A stretch of DNA of 64,000 nucleotides from NCBI GenBank assembly GCA_036490345.1, contig DASXEA010000017.1, forward strand, positions 96-64,095, given 5' to 3'. The notes under the pieces are model-generated. The model worked only from the letters and a program-made list of their open reading frames with translations, had not been told where the DNA came from and did no database searches. Numbering within the stretch: position 1 is the first letter of the stretch; each line of letters starts with the position of its first letter. This document shows, one piece after another, positions 30,567 to 58,136 of this stretch. This DNA is from Rhizomicrobium sp. (GTDB taxonomy: Bacteria; Pseudomonadota; Alphaproteobacteria; Micropepsales; Micropepsaceae). The position numbers and the translations under genes were made by a program.

Positions 30567-30801
30567 CCGCATCGACAAAGCGTTCGGCCTGCTCGACCGC
30601 CCATGCGGCGTCCGGGAGGCCGATGGGTTCCTTTGCGTAGTCCGCGAGTTGACGCAACCTCTGCACCTGATTGAACGCCCTGCCGAGATCGGTCGCGATC
30701 AATCCCGGCTGTACGAGATGCTTCCCTAGCGCAGCGATAAGGCCTGCATGCGTTTTCGGAATGTCGCTGCTCAAGGCGAGGAATGCAGAAGGGGCCTGCA
30801 A
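30541..30801 (-). pseudogene. HEPN-domain protein remnant (N-terminus missing)
   Basis: PKTHAGLIAALGKHLV..GLI...LGRAFN.V.RLRQLADY; no intact start or MNT partner gene. Confidence 0.65.
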
Positions 30802-30854
30802 CCGGGCCTATTGCGGCCTCCGGCCTGCCTCGACAGGCCGACCACATTGCAAAT

Positions 30855-30869
30855 GTTCTCTATTTGTTC
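30855..30869 (+). promoter_or_regulatory. Alphaproteobacterial LexA (SOS) box
   Basis: GTTC-TCTATTT-GTTC (GTTC-N7-GTTC), about 33 nt before imuA. Confidence 0.85.
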
Positions 30870-30901
30870 TAGATTGCTCTTTCTCCAAAGCGGCAGGGAT
30901 C

Positions 30902-31696
30902 GTGCGCGAGGCGGCGGAAAGACTGGGCGGATTGCGGGCTTCTCTTGCCCTGGCAGGGCTCGCGGGAAACGGCGACGGGACACGCGTGCCGCTCGGCCAT
31001 GTGGCGGCCGATGCCTGTCTGAAAGGCGGCCTGCGGACAGGCGCGCTGCATGAAATCTTTTCCGCCGCGCCCGGCCATGAAGCCGCTGCGACGGGCTTTG
31101 CTGCAACGCTCGCGTCACGGCTCGGCGGCAACAGACGCCTTCTCTGGGTGCGGCAGGATTTTTCAGGCCTCGAATTCGGCGAAATATCTGCCACCGGCTT
31201 TCTGGAATTCGGCATCGACCCTTCGCGGCTTCTTCTCTTTCGTGCCGCCGATGTGGCGAGCGGATTGCGCGCGGCAGCCGATGCGCTCACCTGTGCCGCG
31301 CTCGGCGCAGTGGTGATCGAAATTCCGCGCACGCCAAAGCGCCTCGATCTCGTGACGAGCCGGCGGCTTACACTCGCCTGCGCGCAGAACGGTGTGAGCG
31401 CGCTGCTCCTGCGCTTCGAGGCGGATCCCGATGCCAGCGCCGCCGAAACGCGCTGGCTTGTGGGCGCCGGCCATTCGTCTGCCGGCAACAAAAACAACAA
31501 CAACAAGGATTGGGGTTATCCGCGTTTCGATGCCGCCCTCACCCGCAACCGGCACGGAACGACAGGACATTGGGCAATGGAGTGGAATTGTGACCGGGGC
31601 CGTTTCAACGAAACGGCGGATCATCGCGCTGTGGTTTCCGCGTCTGCAGACCGACCGGCTGCAGAGGCGGCAAACGCGCGCCAAAGCGCCGCCTGA
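30902..31696 (+). CDS. imuA: ImuA (RecA-like SOS mutagenesis protein)
   Basis: GL..GALHEI, LLWVRQD, G.DPSRL, LDLVTSRRL.LA, AAETRW, L.RNR.G..G.W.MEW; upstream of imuB. GTG start inferred. Confidence 0.85.
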   Translation: MREAAERLGGLRASLALAGLAGNGDGTRVPLGHVAADACLKGGLRTGALHEIFSAAPGHEAAATGFAATLASRLGGNRRLLWVRQDFSGLEFGEISATGFLEFGIDPSRLLLFRAADVASGLRAAADALTCAALGAVVIEIPRTPKRLDLVTSRRLTLACAQNGVSALLLRFEADPDASAAETRWLVGAGHSSAGNKNNNNKDWGYPRFDAALTRNRHGTTGHWAMEWNCDRGRFNETADHRAVVSASADRPAAEAANARQSAA

Positions 31697-33158
31697 CGAT
31701 TCGCCACCGCTGGTAATCGCCGCGAAGACGGGCGGCGCGCTCAAACTTGCCGCAGTGGACCGCAAGGCGACGGCGCAGGGGCTCGAACGCGGCATGACGC
31801 TGGCCGATGCGCGCGCCATGCTGCCTGCGCTCAGCGTGAAAGCGGCGAACGAAACCGCGGACCACGCACTGCTCGAAGCCATCGCCGAATGGTGCGACCG
31901 CTTCACGCCTTTCGTGGCGCTCCTGCCACCACAATCGCTCGTGCTTGACGTGACAGGCGCTGCCCATCTTTTCGGCGGCGAACGCGCGATGCTCGACCTC
32001 ATGCGCGTCTCGCTGGCGAAGCAGGGCTTTGCCATTCGCGGTGCGCTCGCCGGCACGGCCGGCGCGGCGCGCGCGCTGGCGCATTATCGCGACGGTACCA
32101 TCGTGGCAGCGGGCGAAGAAGCGGCGGCGGTCGCATCCCTGCCTGTCGAAGGGCTGGGCCTCGATGCCGCTGCCACGCAGGCGTTCCGCCGCGCCGGCCT
32201 CAAAACCATCGGCCAGATCGCCGCGCGCAAGCGCAGCGAACTCATGGCCCGTTTCGGCAGTGCCATGGTGACGGCGCTCGATCGTGTGCTCGGCCGCGTG
32301 GAAAATCCCATCTCGCCGCGCTTGCCCCTGCCCGACATCATGGCAGAACACCGCTTTGCCGATCCCGTCGTAAGCGAAGAGCTGGTCATGGCCACGCTCG
32401 ACGCACTCGCGCAATCGCTGGCACCTGTGCTCGCACAACGCGGCGAAGGCGCGCGCGCACTCGAAGCCGCCTTCTTCCGCGCCGACGGCCATGTGCGGCG
32501 CATTGCGATCGAAACGGCGCGGCCGGTGCGGACCCATGAGATCATCGGCCGGCTGTTTCGCGAGAAGCTTGCCCAGCTGGCCGATCCGCTCGACGCCGGT
32601 TTCGGCTTCGATCTCATCCGCTTTGCGGCGACGCGCGCCGAACGCAGCGAGGCCGAGACGGTGAGCCTCGATGCCGGCGCGAACGAAGACAAGGAGATCG
32701 CTTTCCTTGTGGATCGTCTCGCGGCACGGTTCGGAGCACAACGCATCGTGTGTTTCCAGCCCAACGATACACATATCCCCGAAGCCGCCGCGGTAACCCA
32801 GCCCGCGCAATATGCGAAGACAGGCAACGCGGCATGGGCCCGGATCCGGAAGGACGCCGAAGCGCCGCGCCGCCCGCTCCGCCTGTTCGCGAAACCCGAG
32901 CCCATCGACGCGACCGCCGAGGTGCCGGAAGGGCCACCGGGGCGTTTCTGCTGGCGCCGCGTGCAGCATCTGGTCACGCATGCCTCCGGCCCCGAGCGCA
33001 TCGCGATGGAATGGTGGCGTCATCACGAGCCCCGGCCCACCCGCGACTATTTCCGCGTCGAAGACAGCGAAGGCCGGCGTTTCTGGCTTTATCGTGAAGG
33101 GCTATACGGGCGTGAAACGGCGGAAACGCGATGGTTCGTACACGGACTGTTTGCATGA
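31590..33158 (+). CDS. imuB: ImuB (inactive Y-family polymerase)
   Basis: RRIIALWFPRL, GM.LADARA, RFTP.V, LDVTG..HLFGGE, RPLRLF..PEPI, GPERI..EWW, RDYFRVED, WF.HGLFA. Confidence 0.93.
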   Translation: MTGAVSTKRRIIALWFPRLQTDRLQRRQTRAKAPPDDSPPLVIAAKTGGALKLAAVDRKATAQGLERGMTLADARAMLPALSVKAANETADHALLEAIAEWCDRFTPFVALLPPQSLVLDVTGAAHLFGGERAMLDLMRVSLAKQGFAIRGALAGTAGAARALAHYRDGTIVAAGEEAAAVASLPVEGLGLDAAATQAFRRAGLKTIGQIAARKRSELMARFGSAMVTALDRVLGRVENPISPRLPLPDIMAEHRFADPVVSEELVMATLDALAQSLAPVLAQRGEGARALEAAFFRADGHVRRIAIETARPVRTHEIIGRLFREKLAQLADPLDAGFGFDLIRFAATRAERSEAETVSLDAGANEDKEIAFLVDRLAARFGAQRIVCFQPNDTHIPEAAAVTQPAQYAKTGNAAWARIRKDAEAPRRPLRLFAKPEPIDATAEVPEGPPGRFCWRRVQHLVTHASGPERIAMEWWRHHEPRPTRDYFRVEDSEGRRFWLYREGLYGRETAETRWFVHGLFA

Positions 33159-36100
33159 GCTACGCCGAGATCGCAGTCACCACCAATTTTTCCTTTCTGC
33201 GCGGCGCCTCGCATCCGAAGGAATATGCCGAAACCGCGCAAAGTCACGGCCTCGCAGCCATCGGCATTGCCGATCGCAACACGCTGGCGGGAGTCGTGCG
33301 CGCCTTTGATGCACTCAACCAGCTCAAAGCGCATTTCGGCGCGGCACCGAAACTTCTCGTCGGCGCCCGCCTCGTCTTCGCCGACGGCACGCCCGACATC
33401 CTGGCCTATCCCACCGACAAGCAGGCTTACGGCCGCCTCTGCCGTCTGCTCAGCCTCGGCAAGTCGCGCGCCGCCAAGGGCGAATGCCTTCTCCATCTCG
33501 GCGATCTTCGGGAATGGCAAGAAGGATTGCTGCTCGTGGTGATGCTGCAGCACGCGGAACGCGCGGCGATATTCAAGAAGGCCTGGAACAATTTCCCTCT
33601 CCCCCAACTTCCTGGGGGAGAGGGTCAGGGTGAGGGGGCAGTGAAGCTTCTGCCTTCGTCGAATGCTTGCATCATCAGCGCAACGGAGAGTCCCCCTCAC
33701 CCCAGCCCTCTCCCCCTGAAGGGGGAGAGGGAGAAATTGCTCGCACACCTCGCCGCTATCGCTCCCGGCCGCGTGTGGCTGGGTGTGTCGATGCCTTATC
33801 GCGGCGATGACCGGCGCAGGCTGCAGCAACTCCAGCACATCGCGCGCGCGGCGGACATACCGCTTCTCGCGACCAACGACGTGCTTTATCACAGAGCAGA
33901 ACGCCGCGAATTGCAGGATGTCGTCACGTGCATCCGCGAGCATGTGACCCTCAACGAAGCAGGACGCCGTCTCGAAGCGAATGCCGAACGCCATCTGAAA
34001 TCGCCGGCGGAAATGGCAAGACTGTTTCACGATGCACCCGAGGCCATCGCCGAAACGCTCCGCTTTGCCGGTCGCATCCACTTTTCGCTCGATCAGATCA
34101 AATACAATTACCCCGACGAGCCGGTGCCGAAAGGCAAGACGGCGCAGCAGCATCTCTTCGATCTGACCTGGGAGGGCGCGGCGCAGCGTTATCCGCTCGG
34201 CGTGCCGGAGAGCGTGCGCACGGTGCTCGAAAAGGAATTGGCGCTGATCGCCCGGCTGCAAATCGCGCCCTATTTCCTCACCGTTCATGACATCGTGAAT
34301 TTCGCGAAAAGCAAAAGCATCCTTTGCCAGGGCCGCGGCTCGGCGGCGAATTCCGCCGTCTGCTACGTGCTCGGCATCACCGCCGTCGATCCCACCGAAA
34401 TCGACCTTCTCTTCGAGCGTTTCGTATCGCAGGAGCGCCGCGAGCCGCCGGACATCGATGTCGATTTCGAACACGAACGGCGCGAAGAAGTGATCCAGAA
34501 CATCTACAAGCGCTACGGCCATGACCGCGCTGCGCTGACCGCAACCGTCATCTGCTATCGCCCGCGCAGCGCCATTCGCGAAACCGGCAAGGTGTTCGGT
34601 CTCAGCGAAGACGTGACGGCCGCGCTGGCGAGCGGCGTCTGGGGCAGCTGGGGCGAAAAGCTGAAAGAGAACGAAGTCCGTCAGGGCCGGCTCGATCCGC
34701 ACAACAGCCTCGTCGTCCGCGCTGTGAAGGCCGCCAACGAACTCATGGGCTTTCCGCGCCACCTCTCCCAGCATGTCGGCGGCTTCGTGCTCACGCAGGA
34801 GCGCCTCGACACACTGGTGCCCATCGGCCCCGCCACGATGAAAGACCGGTATTTCATCGAATGGGACAAGGACGACATCGACGTGCTCGGCATGATGAAG
34901 GTCGATGTGCTGGGTCTCGGCATGCTGACCTGCATCCGCAAGGCCTTCGATCTCGTCCGCGTCCATGAAGGCAGAGAATTCGATCTCGCAACGGTGCCGC
35001 GCGAAGATCCCGCTGTCTACGACATGCTGTGCAAGGCCGATGCGATCGGCGTGTTCCAGGTGGAAAGCCGCGCCCAGATGAACATGCTGCCGCGTCTTGC
35101 TCCCCGCGAATTCTACGATCTCGTCATCGAAGTGGCGATCGTGCGGCCGGGTCCCATCCAGGGCGACATGGTGCATCCCTATCTGCGCCGGCGCGGCGGC
35201 GCCGAGAGGGTCGAATATCCGTCACCGCATCCCGACCACGGGCCATCCGACGAACTCGAGAAAGTGCTGAGCAAGACATTGGGCGTGCCGCTGTTCCAGG
35301 AGCAGGCGATGAAGCTCGCCATCGTGGCGGCGAAATTCACGCCCGAAGAGGCGAACGGCCTTCGGCGCGCGATGGCGACCTTCCGCAACCTCGGTACGAT
35401 CGATCAGTACGGCCACAAGCTGATCGACGGCATGACGGCGCGCGGCTACACGCGCGACTTCGCGGAGCGCTGCTTCAAGCAGATCGAAGGCTTCGGCAGC
35501 TACGGCTTTCCCGAAAGCCATGCCGCGAGCTTCGCGCATCTCGTCTATATATCGGCCTGGATCAAGCGCCATCATCCGGCGGCCTTCGCCTGCGCGCTCC
35601 TCAATGCGCAACCCATGGGCTTCTATGCACCTGCGGAGATCGTGCGCGACGCGCGCGAGCACGGCGTGGTGGTGCGCCAGCCCGACATCAATGCCAGCCA
35701 TTGGGATCACACGTTGGAACACGAAGCCCGTGGCGTGCTTGCGCTCCGGCTTGGCCTGCGGCTGGTCGACGGTTTCCGCGAAGATTGGGCCGGCAAGATT
35801 GTTGGCGTCCGCCGCAACGGGTTTCCGTCCTTCGACGATTTCGTGCAGCGCACGGGCTTGCCGAAACGCGCCCTCGTGCTGCTCGCCGAAGCCGATGCGT
35901 TGCAATCGCTGGGCCTCGATCGCCGCGAAGGCCTGTGGGCGATCAGGCGCATTCCCGATACGCAATCATTGCCGCTGTTCGCGGCGCGCGAGGCGGCCGA
36001 GCAGCCGCCGGAAACGCTGGCACCCCTGCCAATCATGCCGCTCAGCGAACATGTGCTCGCCGATTACCAGATGCTGCGCCTGTCGCTCAAAGGTCATCTG

Positions 36101-36529
36101 ATGCAGTTCCTGCGCAGCCTTTTCTGCGACGAAGGCGTGAGCAGTTGTCACGGGATTTCGACGGCGCAGGATGGCGCGGCAGCGTCCTGCGCCGGCATCG
36201 TGCTCACGCGGCAGATGCCGGGCGATGCCGGCGTCGTCTTCATCACGCTCTCCGACGAGACGGGCGTCGCCAATGTCGTGGTGTGGCCAAGGCTTGTCGA
36301 AGCCTTCCGCCGCGAGATCATGGGATCGCGGCTGCTGCTCGTCGAAGGCCGCGTGCAGCGCAGCCCCGAAGGCGTGATCCACCTCGTGGCCGAACGGCTC
36401 TACGACCGCTCGGCGGAATTGCAGCGCCTCTCCGAAGACGAACCCCGGCGGCGCTCGCAACCCGAAACAAACATCCACCGCCATCCCCGCAACGTCCGCG
36501 CCGTGCCGAAATCGAGGGACTTTCATTGA
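33155..36529 (+). CDS. dnaE2: Error-prone DNA polymerase DnaE2 (ImuC), with a 48-aa repeat-derived insertion
   Basis: YAE....NFSFLRGASHP, QGRGSAANS, EPPDIDVDFEH, PRHLSQHVGGF, FGSYGFPESHAASFA, C-terminal HPR...SRDFH. Confidence 0.98.
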   Translation: MSYAEIAVTTNFSFLRGASHPKEYAETAQSHGLAAIGIADRNTLAGVVRAFDALNQLKAHFGAAPKLLVGARLVFADGTPDILAYPTDKQAYGRLCRLLSLGKSRAAKGECLLHLGDLREWQEGLLLVVMLQHAERAAIFKKAWNNFPLPQLPGGEGQGEGAVKLLPSSNACIISATESPPHPSPLPLKGEREKLLAHLAAIAPGRVWLGVSMPYRGDDRRRLQQLQHIARAADIPLLATNDVLYHRAERRELQDVVTCIREHVTLNEAGRRLEANAERHLKSPAEMARLFHDAPEAIAETLRFAGRIHFSLDQIKYNYPDEPVPKGKTAQQHLFDLTWEGAAQRYPLGVPESVRTVLEKELALIARLQIAPYFLTVHDIVNFAKSKSILCQGRGSAANSAVCYVLGITAVDPTEIDLLFERFVSQERREPPDIDVDFEHERREEVIQNIYKRYGHDRAALTATVICYRPRSAIRETGKVFGLSEDVTAALASGVWGSWGEKLKENEVRQGRLDPHNSLVVRAVKAANELMGFPRHLSQHVGGFVLTQERLDTLVPIGPATMKDRYFIEWDKDDIDVLGMMKVDVLGLGMLTCIRKAFDLVRVHEGREFDLATVPREDPAVYDMLCKADAIGVFQVESRAQMNMLPRLAPREFYDLVIEVAIVRPGPIQGDMVHPYLRRRGGAERVEYPSPHPDHGPSDELEKVLSKTLGVPLFQEQAMKLAIVAAKFTPEEANGLRRAMATFRNLGTIDQYGHKLIDGMTARGYTRDFAERCFKQIEGFGSYGFPESHAASFAHLVYISAWIKRHHPAAFACALLNAQPMGFYAPAEIVRDAREHGVVVRQPDINASHWDHTLEHEARGVLALRLGLRLVDGFREDWAGKIVGVRRNGFPSFDDFVQRTGLPKRALVLLAEADALQSLGLDRREGLWAIRRIPDTQSLPLFAAREAAEQPPETLAPLPIMPLSEHVLADYQMLRLSLKGHLMQFLRSLFCDEGVSSCHGISTAQDGAAASCAGIVLTRQMPGDAGVVFITLSDETGVANVVVWPRLVEAFRREIMGSRLLLVEGRVQRSPEGVIHLVAERLYDRSAELQRLSEDEPRRRSQPETNIHRHPRNVRAVPKSRDFH
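33593..33736. repeat. 144-bp palindromic element inserted in frame in dnaE2
   Basis: TTCCCTCTCCCCCAACTTCCTGGGGGAGAGGGTCAGGGTGAGGGGG...CCCCCTCACCCCAGCCCTCTCCCCCTGAAGGGGGAGAGGGAGAAA; homologous to 57993-58136. Confidence 0.9.
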
Positions 36530-48569: not shown

Positions 48570-49370
48570 TCAGGGCCAGAGTGAGATCTGTCACGGCAGG
48601 CGGATTTGGCGGGGATCGCGCAGGGCGGCCGGCCTGGGTCCCGGCGGAAGTGGTGCGGCACGGCGCCTTGTGGCCTCTTCGATCTCCTGGCGGAAACGCG
48701 CGCCTCCCATCGCCCAGCCGCCGTTGGTGGCCGCGCGCAGTGCCTCGACGAACGCCGGATCGAGCCGTTCCCTGATCAGGGCACGCCAGGCAGATTGCCG
48801 TTCGTCCAGCGAGCGGCCGAGCCGGCGAAACGCATTGTGGAACTGCGCGAGCGGATCCTCCCGTCCTTCGGCGTGGGCCCGATAGCTCGACCAGCGATGG
48901 TTCCTGGGGTGGGCCACCAGGCGGGCACGCACGGGGTTGAGCTCGATATAGAGACAGCAGGAGACGAAGTACTCTTCGGAATCGATCGGACAAGCGCGAT
49001 AGCGCCCTTCCCAGAGCGTGCCGCTGCGCCGGTAGCGCAGGTTGATATGGCGCACGTAGCGCCGCCCGAGCGACTGCATCGTTGCGGGCAGACTTCCCGC
49101 CGTCGCCGGCGTCGCCAGCAGATGCACGTGGTTGGTCATGAGCACATAGGCATGGATCTTGAGCCCGTTCCTGCCCGCAGCCTCCGCCAGCCAGTCGCGG
49201 TAACGCACATGGTCGTCGTCGCTGAAGAAGATCGCTTTGCGGTCGTTGCCCCGCTGGATCACATGCAAGGCCTGGCCTTCAACGAAATACCGTCCGAGCC
49301 GCGCCATGCCACCCCCAAATCCGCAGCGACACTACACGATGTCCGCGCCAGTTTCCACTCCGACCCCGAA
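48570..49370 (-). mobile_element. RAYT-type element bounded by short imperfect terminal inverted repeats
   Basis: TCAGGGCCAGAGTG (48570-48583) versus CACTCCGACCCCGAA (49356-49370) around the transposase gene. Confidence 0.65.
48591..49307 (-). CDS. REP-associated tyrosine (Y1/HUH) transposase
   Basis: HVIQRGNDR..IF, AYVLMTNHVHLL (HUH), LWEGRY, YIELNPVRA.LV..P....WSSY. Confidence 0.95.
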   Translation of the reverse strand: MARLGRYFVEGQALHVIQRGNDRKAIFFSDDDHVRYRDWLAEAAGRNGLKIHAYVLMTNHVHLLATPATAGSLPATMQSLGRRYVRHINLRYRRSGTLWEGRYRACPIDSEEYFVSCCLYIELNPVRARLVAHPRNHRWSSYRAHAEGREDPLAQFHNAFRRLGRSLDERQSAWRALIRERLDPAFVEALRAATNGGWAMGGARFRQEIEEATRRRAAPLPPGPRPAALRDPRQIRLP

Positions 49371-55519: not shown

Positions 55520-57889
55520 ATGTCCTGGAATGACCATCGCGCGCTCCTCGAACTTTCCACGGCGGAACTCTGCGCGCGGGCGCGGGCGTTGCGCGATGAC
55601 GGGCATGGGGCGCGCGTCACCTATTCGCGCAAAGTGTTTATCCCGCTGACGCATTTGTGCCGCGATGTTTGCATCTATTGCACCTTCGCGAAACCACCCC
55701 GGCGCGGCGAGCGCTGCTATCTGACGCGCGATGAGGTGTTGGCCGTCGCGCGCGCCGGCGCCGGGGCCGGCTGCGCCGAAGCGCTGTTCACACTCGGCGA
55801 CAAGCCGGAACTGCGATACGCCCGGGCCCGCGACGAACTCGCCGAACTCGGCCACGCCACGACGATCTCGTATCTGGCCGAGATGTGCGCGGCAGTGCTC
55901 TCGGAAACGGGCCTTCTGCCGCACGCCAACCCGGGCGTGATGAGCGCCGACGAGATTGCCCTGTTGCGCAAGGTCTCTGTATCGCAGGGCATCATGCTCG
56001 AAAGCGTGTCGGAGCGGCTGTGCGAACGCGGCGGCCCGCATTTCGGCTCGCCCGACAAGCATCCGGCCGTACGGCTTGAAACCATCCGCCTTGCGGGCGA
56101 AGCGCAGGTGCCATTCACCTCCGGCATCCTGATCGGCATCGGCGAGACGCGCCAGGAACGTCTGGACTCGCTCCTGGCGCTGAGTGATCTGCATGCCCGC
56201 TACGGCCACATCCAGGAAATCATCATCCAGAATTTCCGCGCCAAAGCCGATACGCGCATGGCGGGCGCCGCCGAGCCGGATCATGACGATCTGATGTGGA
56301 CGATCGCGCTCGCACGGTGTGTGTTCGGTCCGGCAATGAACATCCAGGCGCCGCCCAATCTCAGCGCTGCCAATTTCGGCGCCCTTCTCGAAGCGGGGCT
56401 CAACGATTGGGGCGGCGTCTCACCGGTGACGCCCGACCACGTCAATCCCGAAGCGCCATGGCCGCAGCTCGATTGCCTTCGCCGCGAAACTGCCACCCAT
56501 GGCAAGACGCTGGTCGAGCGCCTCGCGGCCTATCCGGCCTATGTGCAGGATCTCGCGCGCTGGCAGGATCCGGCGCTGCACAAGCACATCCTGCGCGCAA
56601 GCGATGCTGAAGGATTGGCGCGCACCGATACCTGGACGCCCGGCGCCCTTACGCCGCCGCAGCGGGAAGCTGTGTGGCACAGACCGGTTTCACCGGCCAT
56701 CGCGCGCGCCATGGATCGCGCCTGCAACGGTGAAGGCCTGGATGAAGACGCGATCGTTGCCCTGTTCGCCGCGCGCGGACCGGATTTCGACGCCGTTTGC
56801 GCAAGTGCCGATGCGCTGCGCCAGGCGGTCAATGGCGACACGGTCAGCTACGTCGTCAATCGCAACATCAACTACACCAATGTCTGTACCTACAAATGCG
56901 GCTTCTGCGCCTTTTCCAAGGGCAAGACGAGCATCGATCTGCGGGGCGCGCCCTACGATCTGGCACTCGAAGAAGTCACGCGGCGCGTCCGCGAGGCCTG
57001 GGCGCGCGGTGGCCTCGAAGTCTGCATGCAGGGCGGCATCCATCCGGATTATACCGGCGAGACCTATCTCGAACTCTGCCGTACGGCGAAAGAAGCCGAG
57101 CCGCGGATCCATGTGCATGCCTTCTCGCCACTGGAAGTGATGCATGGCGCGGAAACGCTTGGCATTTCCATTCGCGATTTTCTTCTTCGGTTGAAGGATG
57201 CCGGTCTGGGCACGTTGCCCGGCACGGCGGCGGAAATTCTCGACGACGACATCCGCGCGATCATCTGCCCCGACAAATTGACGACGGCCGAGTGGTTGAA
57301 CGTATTACGCACGGCGCATGAGATCGGCCTGCGCACCACCTCGACGATCATGTACGGCCACGTTGAAACGCCGCGTGCCTGGGCGCGGCATCTGCTGCGG
57401 CTGCGTGACCTGCAAAGCGAAACCGGCGGCGTCACCGAATTCGTGCCGCTGCCCTTCGTGCATATGGAATCGCCGATGTATCTGCGCGGCAAGGCGCGCA
57501 AGGGTCCCACCTTTCGCGAGGCCGTGCTGATGCATGCCGTCGCACGGCTGGCGCTCCATCCGCTCATTCCCAACATCCAGGCATCCTGGGTAAAGATGGG
57601 CCGCGACGGCGTGGCGCGTTGCCTCAATGCCGGCGCCAACGATCTGGGCGGCACGCTGATGAACGAAAGCATCTCGCGCGCCGCCGGAACGCAGCATGGC
57701 CAGGAATTCCCGCCAGCCGAGATGGACGCGCTGGTCCGCTCGATCGGCCGCACGCCGCGCCAGCGCACCACGCTCTACGCCGATGCGCCGGGCGGACAGG
57801 CGCAAAAATCCTACGATGCGTCCGAACTTTCGCCCGTCGTGCAGACGCCGCTGCGCACGCGTCACCGGGAACTGGCAGCGAACGCGTAG
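55520..57889 (+). CDS. fbiC: Bifunctional FO synthase (CofG-CofH fusion)
   Basis: Two radical-SAM CxxxCxxC motifs (LCRDVCIYC, VCTYKCGFC); TYSRKVFIPLT, YVVNRNINYTN, LGGTLMNESISRAAG. Confidence 0.96.
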   Translation: MSWNDHRALLELSTAELCARARALRDDGHGARVTYSRKVFIPLTHLCRDVCIYCTFAKPPRRGERCYLTRDEVLAVARAGAGAGCAEALFTLGDKPELRYARARDELAELGHATTISYLAEMCAAVLSETGLLPHANPGVMSADEIALLRKVSVSQGIMLESVSERLCERGGPHFGSPDKHPAVRLETIRLAGEAQVPFTSGILIGIGETRQERLDSLLALSDLHARYGHIQEIIIQNFRAKADTRMAGAAEPDHDDLMWTIALARCVFGPAMNIQAPPNLSAANFGALLEAGLNDWGGVSPVTPDHVNPEAPWPQLDCLRRETATHGKTLVERLAAYPAYVQDLARWQDPALHKHILRASDAEGLARTDTWTPGALTPPQREAVWHRPVSPAIARAMDRACNGEGLDEDAIVALFAARGPDFDAVCASADALRQAVNGDTVSYVVNRNINYTNVCTYKCGFCAFSKGKTSIDLRGAPYDLALEEVTRRVREAWARGGLEVCMQGGIHPDYTGETYLELCRTAKEAEPRIHVHAFSPLEVMHGAETLGISIRDFLLRLKDAGLGTLPGTAAEILDDDIRAIICPDKLTTAEWLNVLRTAHEIGLRTTSTIMYGHVETPRAWARHLLRLRDLQSETGGVTEFVPLPFVHMESPMYLRGKARKGPTFREAVLMHAVARLALHPLIPNIQASWVKMGRDGVARCLNAGANDLGGTLMNESISRAAGTQHGQEFPPAEMDALVRSIGRTPRQRTTLYADAPGGQAQKSYDASELSPVVQTPLRTRHRELAANA

Positions 57890-57916: not shown

Positions 57917-57950
57917 TTCCCTCTCCCGCAACTTCCTGGGGGCGAGGGAA
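57917..57950. repeat. Half-unit hairpin of the 144-bp element
   Basis: TTCCCTCTCCC-GCAACTTCCT-GGGGGCGAGGGAA. Confidence 0.8.
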
Positions 57951-57992
57951 AGATGCCGCCGGACATACGTGTTGGCGGGGCGCCATCCTATG

Positions 57993-58136
57993 TTCCCTCT
58001 CCCCCAACTTCCTGGGGGAGAGGGCCAGGGTGAGGGGGCGGTGACGCGGCTGTCGCATTGCAGGAATTGCACCTTCGGCGCCGCGGCGAGTCCCCCTCAC
58101 CCTGGCCCTCTCCCCCGCTACACTGGGGCGAGGGAA
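57993..58136. repeat. 144-bp palindromic element (intergenic copy)
   Basis: Homologous end to end with 33593-33736. Confidence 0.9.

Follow-up and report, generated by a model that had tools for sequence, protein, structure and literature searches.

A palindromic repeat doublet read in frame in the error-prone polymerase gene dnaE2 of Rhizomicrobium, at a site repeatedly occupied in relatives

Introduction

Intragenic repetitive extragenic palindromic (REP) sequences are short, GC-rich palindromic units that come as dimers or clusters, lie mostly between genes and in a few cases sit in frame inside open reading frames (ORFs), as described by Di Nocera, De Gregorio & Rocco (2013, BMC Genomics 14:522; PMC3733652; here and below, the text passages and additional file 3 of that survey). 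These intragenic REPs favour replication and repair genes, DnaE2 being named among the products, and the survey already describes in-frame REPs inside dnaE2. Additional file 3 places dnaE2 REPs at residues 128-157 in Rhodopseudomonas palustris, 166-246 in Sphingomonas wittichii, 175-203 in Erythrobacter litoralis and 934-971 in Opitutus terrae; it also lists REPs in the linkers of E2 acyltransferases, and the authors speculate on mutator effects of REP-tagged repair genes (PMC3733652). Here we analyse a 64,000-nt stretch of Rhizomicrobium sp. DNA (GenBank assembly GCA_036490345.1, contig DASXEA010000017.1, positions 96 to 64,095 of the forward strand; henceforth the window), in which a 144-nt palindromic repeat doublet at 33593-33736 is read in frame as part of dnaE2, and we compare its site with the same site in relatives.

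Rickettsia palindromic elements (RPEs; Ogata et al. 2000, 2002, as summarised in passages of PMC10969869) are ~100-150 bp long, inserted in frame and translated, at places that the protein fold tolerates. Miniature inverted-repeat transposable elements of bacteria (MITEs) such as Correia/NEMIS, ERIC, Nezha and BOX measure 70-300 bp, have long terminal inverted repeats and form a stable RNA stem-loop (PMC3184786, PMC10969869). REPs are also known targets of insertion sequences (ISs) and cluster into mosaics (PMC3184786; PMC3733652).

With its two inverted units, conserved spacer and single long hairpin (-95.6 kcal/mol, z -7.2), the dnaE2 element is a doublet like the REP doublets forming hairpins (REPINs) and the bacterial interspersed mosaic elements (BIMEs). 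REPINs and BIMEs are reportedly mobilised by REP-associated tyrosine transposases (RAYTs, of the Y1 HUH kind), a notion linked with Bertels and Rainey in 2011, Nunvar in 2010 and Ton-Hoang in 2012. The window family further resembles them in its tens of copies, in arrays that alternate two unit subtypes, in the lack of a target-site duplication and in a genome that holds Y1 genes; unlike them, it has no GTAG tag and does not flank those Y1 genes, and its mobilisation by a RAYT is putative. Like intragenic REPs, the family has many dispersed copies whose units are paired in opposite orientation or clustered, and the dnaE2 copy lies wholly inside an ORF without a stop codon in the reading frame; it differs in lacking the GTAG/CGTC tag that defines the two superfamilies of PMC3733652 and in its module, a hairpin plus 14-nt tail set in a doublet with a fixed 53-nt spacer.

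The initial annotation of the locus had likened the element to RPEs and to intragenic REPs that favour repair and replication genes, in agreement with PMC3733652. An RPE is likewise a palindromic element of similar size, inserted in frame in the gene for a known protein and translated; RPEs, however, occupy dozens of genes in a genome and share one coding frame across the family (PMC10969869, summary passages), whereas our host genome, from a free-living lineage labelled Hyphomicrobiales/Rhizomicrobium and compared by description, has only two copies inside coding sequence, one clear and the other decayed, and five of its eight canonical doublets are 143 nt long. MITE-like traits are the size of 144 nt, the pairing terminal arms, the absence of a transposase gene and the occasional in-frame fusion with host ORFs or replacement of ORF ends (the family ends tmk), but neither a target-site duplication nor a parent IS with matching ends was found. 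Because the units bear no superfamily tag, no Y1 gene is flanked by them in the arrangement called a REPtron, and the frequency of coding copies is not RPE-like, we class the elements as a new REP-type family with known behaviour.

Results

A repeat doublet translated as part of DnaE2

The element begins at base 33593, the first base of dnaE2 codon 155, and its 48 codons (155-202) encode a peptide running from FPLPQLPGGEGQGEGAVK to SPPHPSPLPLKGEREK. The initial annotation had described a nested palindrome carried in frame by an otherwise complete polymerase gene, and both parts of this description hold. Inverted-repeat arms of 42 nt each (33597-33638 and 33692-33733) lie 53 nt apart, perfect 12-bp local hairpins stand at 33595-33624 and at 33706-33731, and the outermost pairing is complete (12/12, 33594-33605 with 33721-33732). 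Folding of the RNA from 33585 to 33745 predicts a single long hairpin of -95.6 kcal/mol (z -7.21), with none of 200 dinucleotide shuffles as stable, in line with the earlier suggestion of an mRNA structure at the insert. The left 46-nt unit (33593-33638, forward strand), made of an 11-bp hairpin and then a G-rich tail (TCAGGGTGAGGGGG), is the top-scoring unit in the genome (nhmmer C46:33688-33733, 51.7 bits). It is followed by the 53-nt spacer (33639-33691), which has the same length in seven doublets and a partly conserved sequence, and by the inverted right unit on the minus strand (33692-33732), whose hairpin loop is shortened (nhmmer C46:33787-33827(-), 32 bits).

The gene that carries the doublet (33131-36529, forward strand) is an intact ORF of 1132 residues. 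Its product scores 1449 bits against NF004225 (error-prone DNA polymerase, NCBIfam; cut-off 939) and has the full expected set of Pfam domains (PHP, DNA_pol3_alpha, finger, HHH_6 and OB), so that subfamily score and domain architecture agree on DnaE2; the catalytic PDIDVDFEH block is unbroken and the frame stays open over 1132 codons. The Pfam PHP match is interrupted at the 144-nt insert. An Rfam search of the element returned sub-threshold hairpin noise alone (eukaryotic microRNA models far below their gathering scores), and a scan found neither a terminator-like (U-tract) nor a promoter-like site at the element. An intein, programmed bypass and recoding were each considered and rejected, the frame being open and the sequence a dispersed non-coding repeat.

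The same site holds different palindromes in relatives

On its left the insertion site is bounded by the codons for FKKAWNN (33572-33592, forward strand), a motif conserved and clade-specific in alignments; on its right, homology with relatives resumes at about the start of the post-loop helix (LLAHLAAIAPGRV, 33737-33775, forward strand; helix 197-210 in the AlphaFold2 model). The initial annotation had expected a clean 48-residue gap here in orthologues. For distant orthologues, which simply lack the segment, this proved right; close relatives instead hold other inserts. Across much of the genus the loop is extended by a conserved, non-palindromic stretch carrying an FWNK/AWNN motif, and the span is exactly the same in 44 of 103 aligned sequences. 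In the host clade, the sequence after FKKAWNN is replaced by highly diverse Pro/Gly/Arg-rich peptides, as translated REPs give. The genus-specific motif of the extension, K-[KR]-[AFV]-W-N-[NKD] (33572-33592; L109-L137, A2), is kept even where repeats replace everything after it, and might serve as a short interaction motif.

The closest comparison is with the sister locus P0002, whose protein is 87% identical and which lacks the window doublet; between about the same two junctions it carries a different, longer palindrome. DNA homology between the two loci ends at the A of the last FKKAWNN codon, two bases before the element, and resumes at ATT(G/C)CT. The dnaE2 copy has AATT on both sides, a sequence that is itself palindromic and is unseen at other copies of the family. 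Among 5.8 billion proteins we found no near-identical relative with an empty site, the best match being 63-66% over the region.

To place the expanded loops we used a FastTree phylogeny of the homologues from which the loop columns were excluded, with local supports only. Expanded loops, 31 in all, occur in 25 of the 31 rows of a group that includes two well-supported subclades, and in six of the seven rows of a separate subclade. Palindromes were checked at the DNA level at ten loci (eight fetched homologues, the window locus and genome G010). All ten are strongly palindromic at the site (z -4.3 to -12.3; the loop regions fold at about -99 to -195 kcal/mol), and all have different sequences, whereas loops that are not expanded or not palindromic reach a z of -2.4 or weaker. 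In four organisms (the host, G000, and G010, G073 and G074) the insert is a dispersed repeat of its own genome: the dnaE2 inserts of the last three have 35, 78 and 98 genome matches, respectively, with more than 20 of those in G074 being full-length at 80-88% identity.

Compound and partial elements also occupy the site. In one dnaE2 loop a palindromic element is nested in the centre of another (L142:594-935), and in a second two different palindromes stand side by side (L005:1222-1545); these compound loops are direct traces of the insertion of one element into another. The clade's six short loops still contain pieces of element ends. We also noted stop codons (one TAG, two TGA) in the N-terminal dnaE2 matches of two congeners (G061:C10:168193-169056 and G040:C44:36650-37459), which may point to pseudogenes or to errors of assembly in incomplete metagenome-assembled genomes.

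By a rough estimate, about 100 copies scattered over ~0.5 Mb of tolerant DNA would occupy a given 40-nt spot in less than 1% of genomes. Since it is occupied in ~80% of the clade, the recurrence is too strong for random hits. The locus thus offers a clean and densely sampled example of turnover, in which one ~40-nt spot is occupied in most of a clade, each locus checked holds a different palindrome, nesting and decay are directly evident, and no comparable length variation occurs elsewhere in the 1132 residues. In the text passages and additional file 3 of PMC3733652 we found no mention of repeated hits on one loop or of family turnover between close relatives. The three alphaproteobacterial dnaE2 inserts listed there appear, by residue number only, to coincide with the loop described here.

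The insert lies in a hypervariable loop of the PHP domain

By sequence, the insertion site falls in the PHP domain, ahead of the position of residue 162 of E. coli Pol III alpha. An AlphaFold2 model built from 103 homologues (mean predicted local distance difference test score, pLDDT, 77; predicted template-modelling score, pTM, 0.74) has no secondary structure at residues 139-196, with pLDDT below 50 at 150-194, between a strand (133-138) and a helix (197-210) that are both modelled at a pLDDT of ~90. The last six codons of the element are modelled as the first, N-terminal turn of that helix. The insert is therefore predicted to lie in a disordered surface loop, as the initial annotation had supposed. 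Its further proposal, that the peptide makes a new functional loop, finds no support: the region is unconserved among relatives and predicted to be disordered.

The loop is also where the protein varies in length. In most Alphaproteobacteria it has ~21 residues; among 94 alphaproteobacterial DnaE2 sequences the stretch between the flanking anchors measures 14-27 residues in 78 and at least 37 residues in 16. Across the 103 homologues no other internal region varies in length by 12 columns or more, and the other low-confidence loop of the model (945-986) has equal length in 100 of the 103 and a conserved sequence.

The repeat family in the host genome

The host genome is a draft of 4.16 Mb in 89 contigs. 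Within it the 144-mer has 100 BLAST matches, the dnaE2 copy being the 100% self-match, and iterated nhmmer searches find ~72 copies of the 46-nt unit, which bears out the dispersed family proposed at the outset. Each unit consists of an 11-bp hairpin with a loop of 6-10 nt and then a 14-nt G-rich tail. Most units come as inverted pairs: 12 adjacent pairs are convergent and 22 divergent, and in seven of the convergent pairs the spacer is exactly 53 nt. From the inverted pairing and the fixed, partly conserved spacer we conclude that the ~144-nt doublet behaves as a unit, like a REPIN or BIME module. Of 61 congeneric genomes sampled, 27 contain the family.

A second full doublet of 144 nt had been recognised in the window between fbiC and cofE (57993-58136, forward strand), and its description stands. 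It is intergenic, the CofGH/FbiC gene ending at 57889 and cofE starting at or after 58153, and it aligns with the dnaE2 copy without gaps (107 of 144 positions identical, 48 of them among the first 50) and is free of stops in the same frame. Given ~72 unit copies genome-wide, the match of the two window copies is far beyond chance. Upstream of the second doublet lies a lone partial unit with the hairpin only (57917-57951, forward strand; nhmmer C46:58012-58046 and alignment).

The initial annotation had taken the length and open frame of the element as features by which the family creates protein loops. This view did not survive comparison of the eight canonical doublets, of which five are 143 nt and three 144 nt long, and in each of which between none and three of the six frames are open. 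A family in which most canonical doublets are 143 nt long and at most three frames are open is not built for coding; that the dnaE2 copy is in frame and free of stops is best explained as an outcome allowed by purifying selection.

Units also stand in tandem arrays, 4-8 at a time and repeating every ~200-220 nt, at C2:112.8-113.5 kb, C26:31.0-31.8 kb, C31:77-81 kb, C40:55-56.7 kb and C52:56.1-56.4 kb (contigs of the host genome). In them two unit subtypes, distinguished by their hairpin loops, alternate, which resembles the Y/Z alternation of E. coli BIMEs.

The genome has two intact Y1 transposase ORFs (PF01797), one in the window (48591-49307, minus strand; 48.6 bits), an IS200-like Y1 (HUH) gene and possible RAYT whose nearest family unit is more than 8 kb away, and one at C13:1206-1529; each is a candidate for either a RAYT or a plain IS200 transposase. 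Fragments of Y1 transposases at C59:61740-61901 and C13:7590-7751 each contain a TGA stop, and they too lack flanking copies of the family.

Origin and persistence of the dnaE2 insert

We consider it likely that the dnaE2 element is a REP-type doublet carried as a neutral passenger in a tolerant loop, and that the site is a recurrent landing pad for such elements. Resembling a REPIN or BIME, with its two inverted 46-nt units and 53-nt spacer, the doublet would have entered dnaE2 after the host diverged from its closest sequenced relative, the P0002 lineage, to be translated as a Pro/Gly-rich stretch of 48 residues in the loop that is most likely neutral. The insert survives because it is a multiple of three nucleotides long, has no in-frame stop and is located in a PHP-domain loop that is long, disordered and hypervariable; tolerance was probably helped by a loop that was already extended and by the nature of DnaE2, a non-essential, damage-induced polymerase. 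On a longer time scale, many unrelated palindromic families would have inserted into, beside or within one another in the ~40 nt after the FKKAWNN codons, with a resident hairpin-forming element attracting further palindromic elements. Older elements may be lost by internal, hairpin-mediated deletion, of which selection would keep frame-preserving products alone. A Y1/HUH transposase acting on hairpins of single-stranded DNA is a candidate for the integration chemistry.

Several points weigh against this account. No shared direct repeat was found at the ends of 12 aligned doublets, so that a target-site duplication is lacking; a GTAG or CGTC end tag, or its complement, is absent from both ends of the aligned units and of the consensus; and no Y1 gene is flanked by the repeat family, there being no unit within 8 kb of 48591-49307 or on contig C13. 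The insertion event would be read from comparison with a sister of 87% identity in which another insert is present, not from a near-identical empty site. The AlphaFold2 model is of only moderate confidence overall (mean pLDDT 77), and low pLDDT is to be expected in any case for an insert absent from the alignment. Translation and the correctness of the assembly are taken as assumed. Finally, a strong hairpin that persists at one site could reflect selection for the hairpin itself, which the data do not separate from an insertion hotspot.

That last possibility deserves to be set out. Selection might maintain a nucleic-acid hairpin in the imuA-imuB-dnaE2 transcript, or in single-stranded DNA, that throttles or stabilises expression of dnaE2 by slowing ribosomes, by RNase processing or by polymerase pausing, so that any palindrome supplying a hairpin would be retained. 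Unrelated sequences sharing strong hairpins at the same place in 10 of 10 loci (-99 to -195 kcal/mol), with loops expanded in 25 of 31 rows of the main group, speak for it, as does the recurrence of the structural type without that of the peptide, and REPs have been proposed as RNA elements (PMC3733652, same passages). An insertion hotspot combined with slow decay would yield the same pattern, however; six clade members have short loops with element fragments only, a hairpin is lacking at the site in many congeners and in most Alphaproteobacteria, the scan saw no U-tract terminator or promoter, and the effect on dnaE2 expression is putative. We hold selection for the hairpin to be unlikely. 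Adaptive change of the protein appears less probable again. Here the 48-residue loop would alter the activity, partner binding or stability of DnaE2 and yield a mutator or anti-mutator mutasome. Repair and replication genes are indeed over-represented among REP-tagged ORFs, at times as the sole tagged ORFs (PMC3733652, same passages), as they are in the host genome, and the last six codons of the element are modelled as part of helix 197-210; but the insert peptide is predicted to be disordered, relatives hold wholly different peptides or remnants at the site with no conservation at the protein level, and other copies of the family occupy an E2 acyltransferase's flexible linker and form the tail of Tmk, classic tolerant positions. 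Both readings are rated low because the peptides are unconserved, short loops with remnants only exist, and most relatives outside the clade have no hairpin.

Least probable of all, and in our judgement very unlikely, is that there is no genuine translated insertion, the contig being misassembled across the repeat or dnaE2 being a decaying pseudogene with a fortuitously open frame. The draft state of the genome, in 89 contigs, and the stop codons in the dnaE2 matches of G061 and G040 leave room for an artefact. Set against them are 1132 open codons with all domains and an intact PDIDVDFEH block, flanks that align codon for codon with relatives, an element of 144 nt that is shorter than typical assembly ambiguities and has both junctions in unique sequence, and a like insert at the same place in independent assemblies of nine other organisms.

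The turnover seen at this locus makes testable why selfish palindromes concentrate in mutasome and repair genes, with loop tolerance, hairpin-directed targeting and selection on expression as the competing answers. A stronger proposition is that the site after FKKAWNN is actively targeted, by structure-directed integration on single-stranded DNA, or is a selectively maintained hairpin that limits a mutagenic polymerase. We regard it as rather unlikely; if true, it would link selfish palindromes mechanistically to the control of SOS mutagenesis, and, given the 2013 list (additional file 3 of PMC3733652), would do so across phyla. In-frame palindromic inserts also confound domain annotation and yield the Pro/Gly-rich motifs of many hypothetical proteins.

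The imuA-imuB-dnaE2 cassette and other coding contacts of the family

Upstream of dnaE2 lie an ImuB-like Y-family polymerase homologue with weak Pol IV-family matches (31431-33158, forward strand) and an ImuA-like ORF (30671-31696, forward strand; NF033429 at 31.6 bits, below the cut-off), neither of which carries a palindromic insert; relatives have the same gene order, with imuA and imuB upstream of dnaE2. From the NF004225 match, the domains and these upstream ORFs we conclude that the gene is the dnaE2 of an imuA-imuB-dnaE2 cassette. No further palindromic inserts were found in imuA, imuB or the remainder of dnaE2.

A genome-wide count of coding against intergenic copies had been called for. 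It confirmed the dispersal of the family but yielded only one clear internal coding copy, that in dnaE2, and one decayed copy in an E2 linker. Of 95 long palindromic loci in the host genome, six were flagged inside coding frames by a codon-usage model trained on long ORFs, which replaced a test based on GC content at third codon positions that had favoured the antisense frame in dnaE2. Chance inverted repeats account for four of the six (z -2.7 or weaker), and the dnaE2 element is the sole clear in-frame repeat insertion among the 95. A further flagged locus, C52:92183-92273, is a 91-nt near-perfect hairpin of another family (z -5.5) in frame inside the FAD_binding_4 domain of an FAD-linked oxidase; its status as an insert is doubtful, as the Pfam match runs unbroken through the hairpin and the sequence may be native. 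ORFs spanning family copies on C40, C87, C78, C2 and C74 were rejected as Arg-rich spurious frames or repeat arrays and are no genes.

Besides dnaE2, family copies touch coding sequence in two places only. In an E2 acyltransferase gene (G000:C69, minus strand; L105 525-1850) a decayed divergent doublet (L105:1455-1570) forms part of the translated flexible linker that joins the lipoyl domain (residues 6-77) to the E3-binding domain (156-190). The second place has a full doublet between tmk, encoding thymidylate kinase, and the gene for the delta-prime subunit of DNA polymerase III (G000:C40:47182-47325; L107:1183-1326), which overlaps the 3' end of tmk and supplies about its last 16 codons and the stop.

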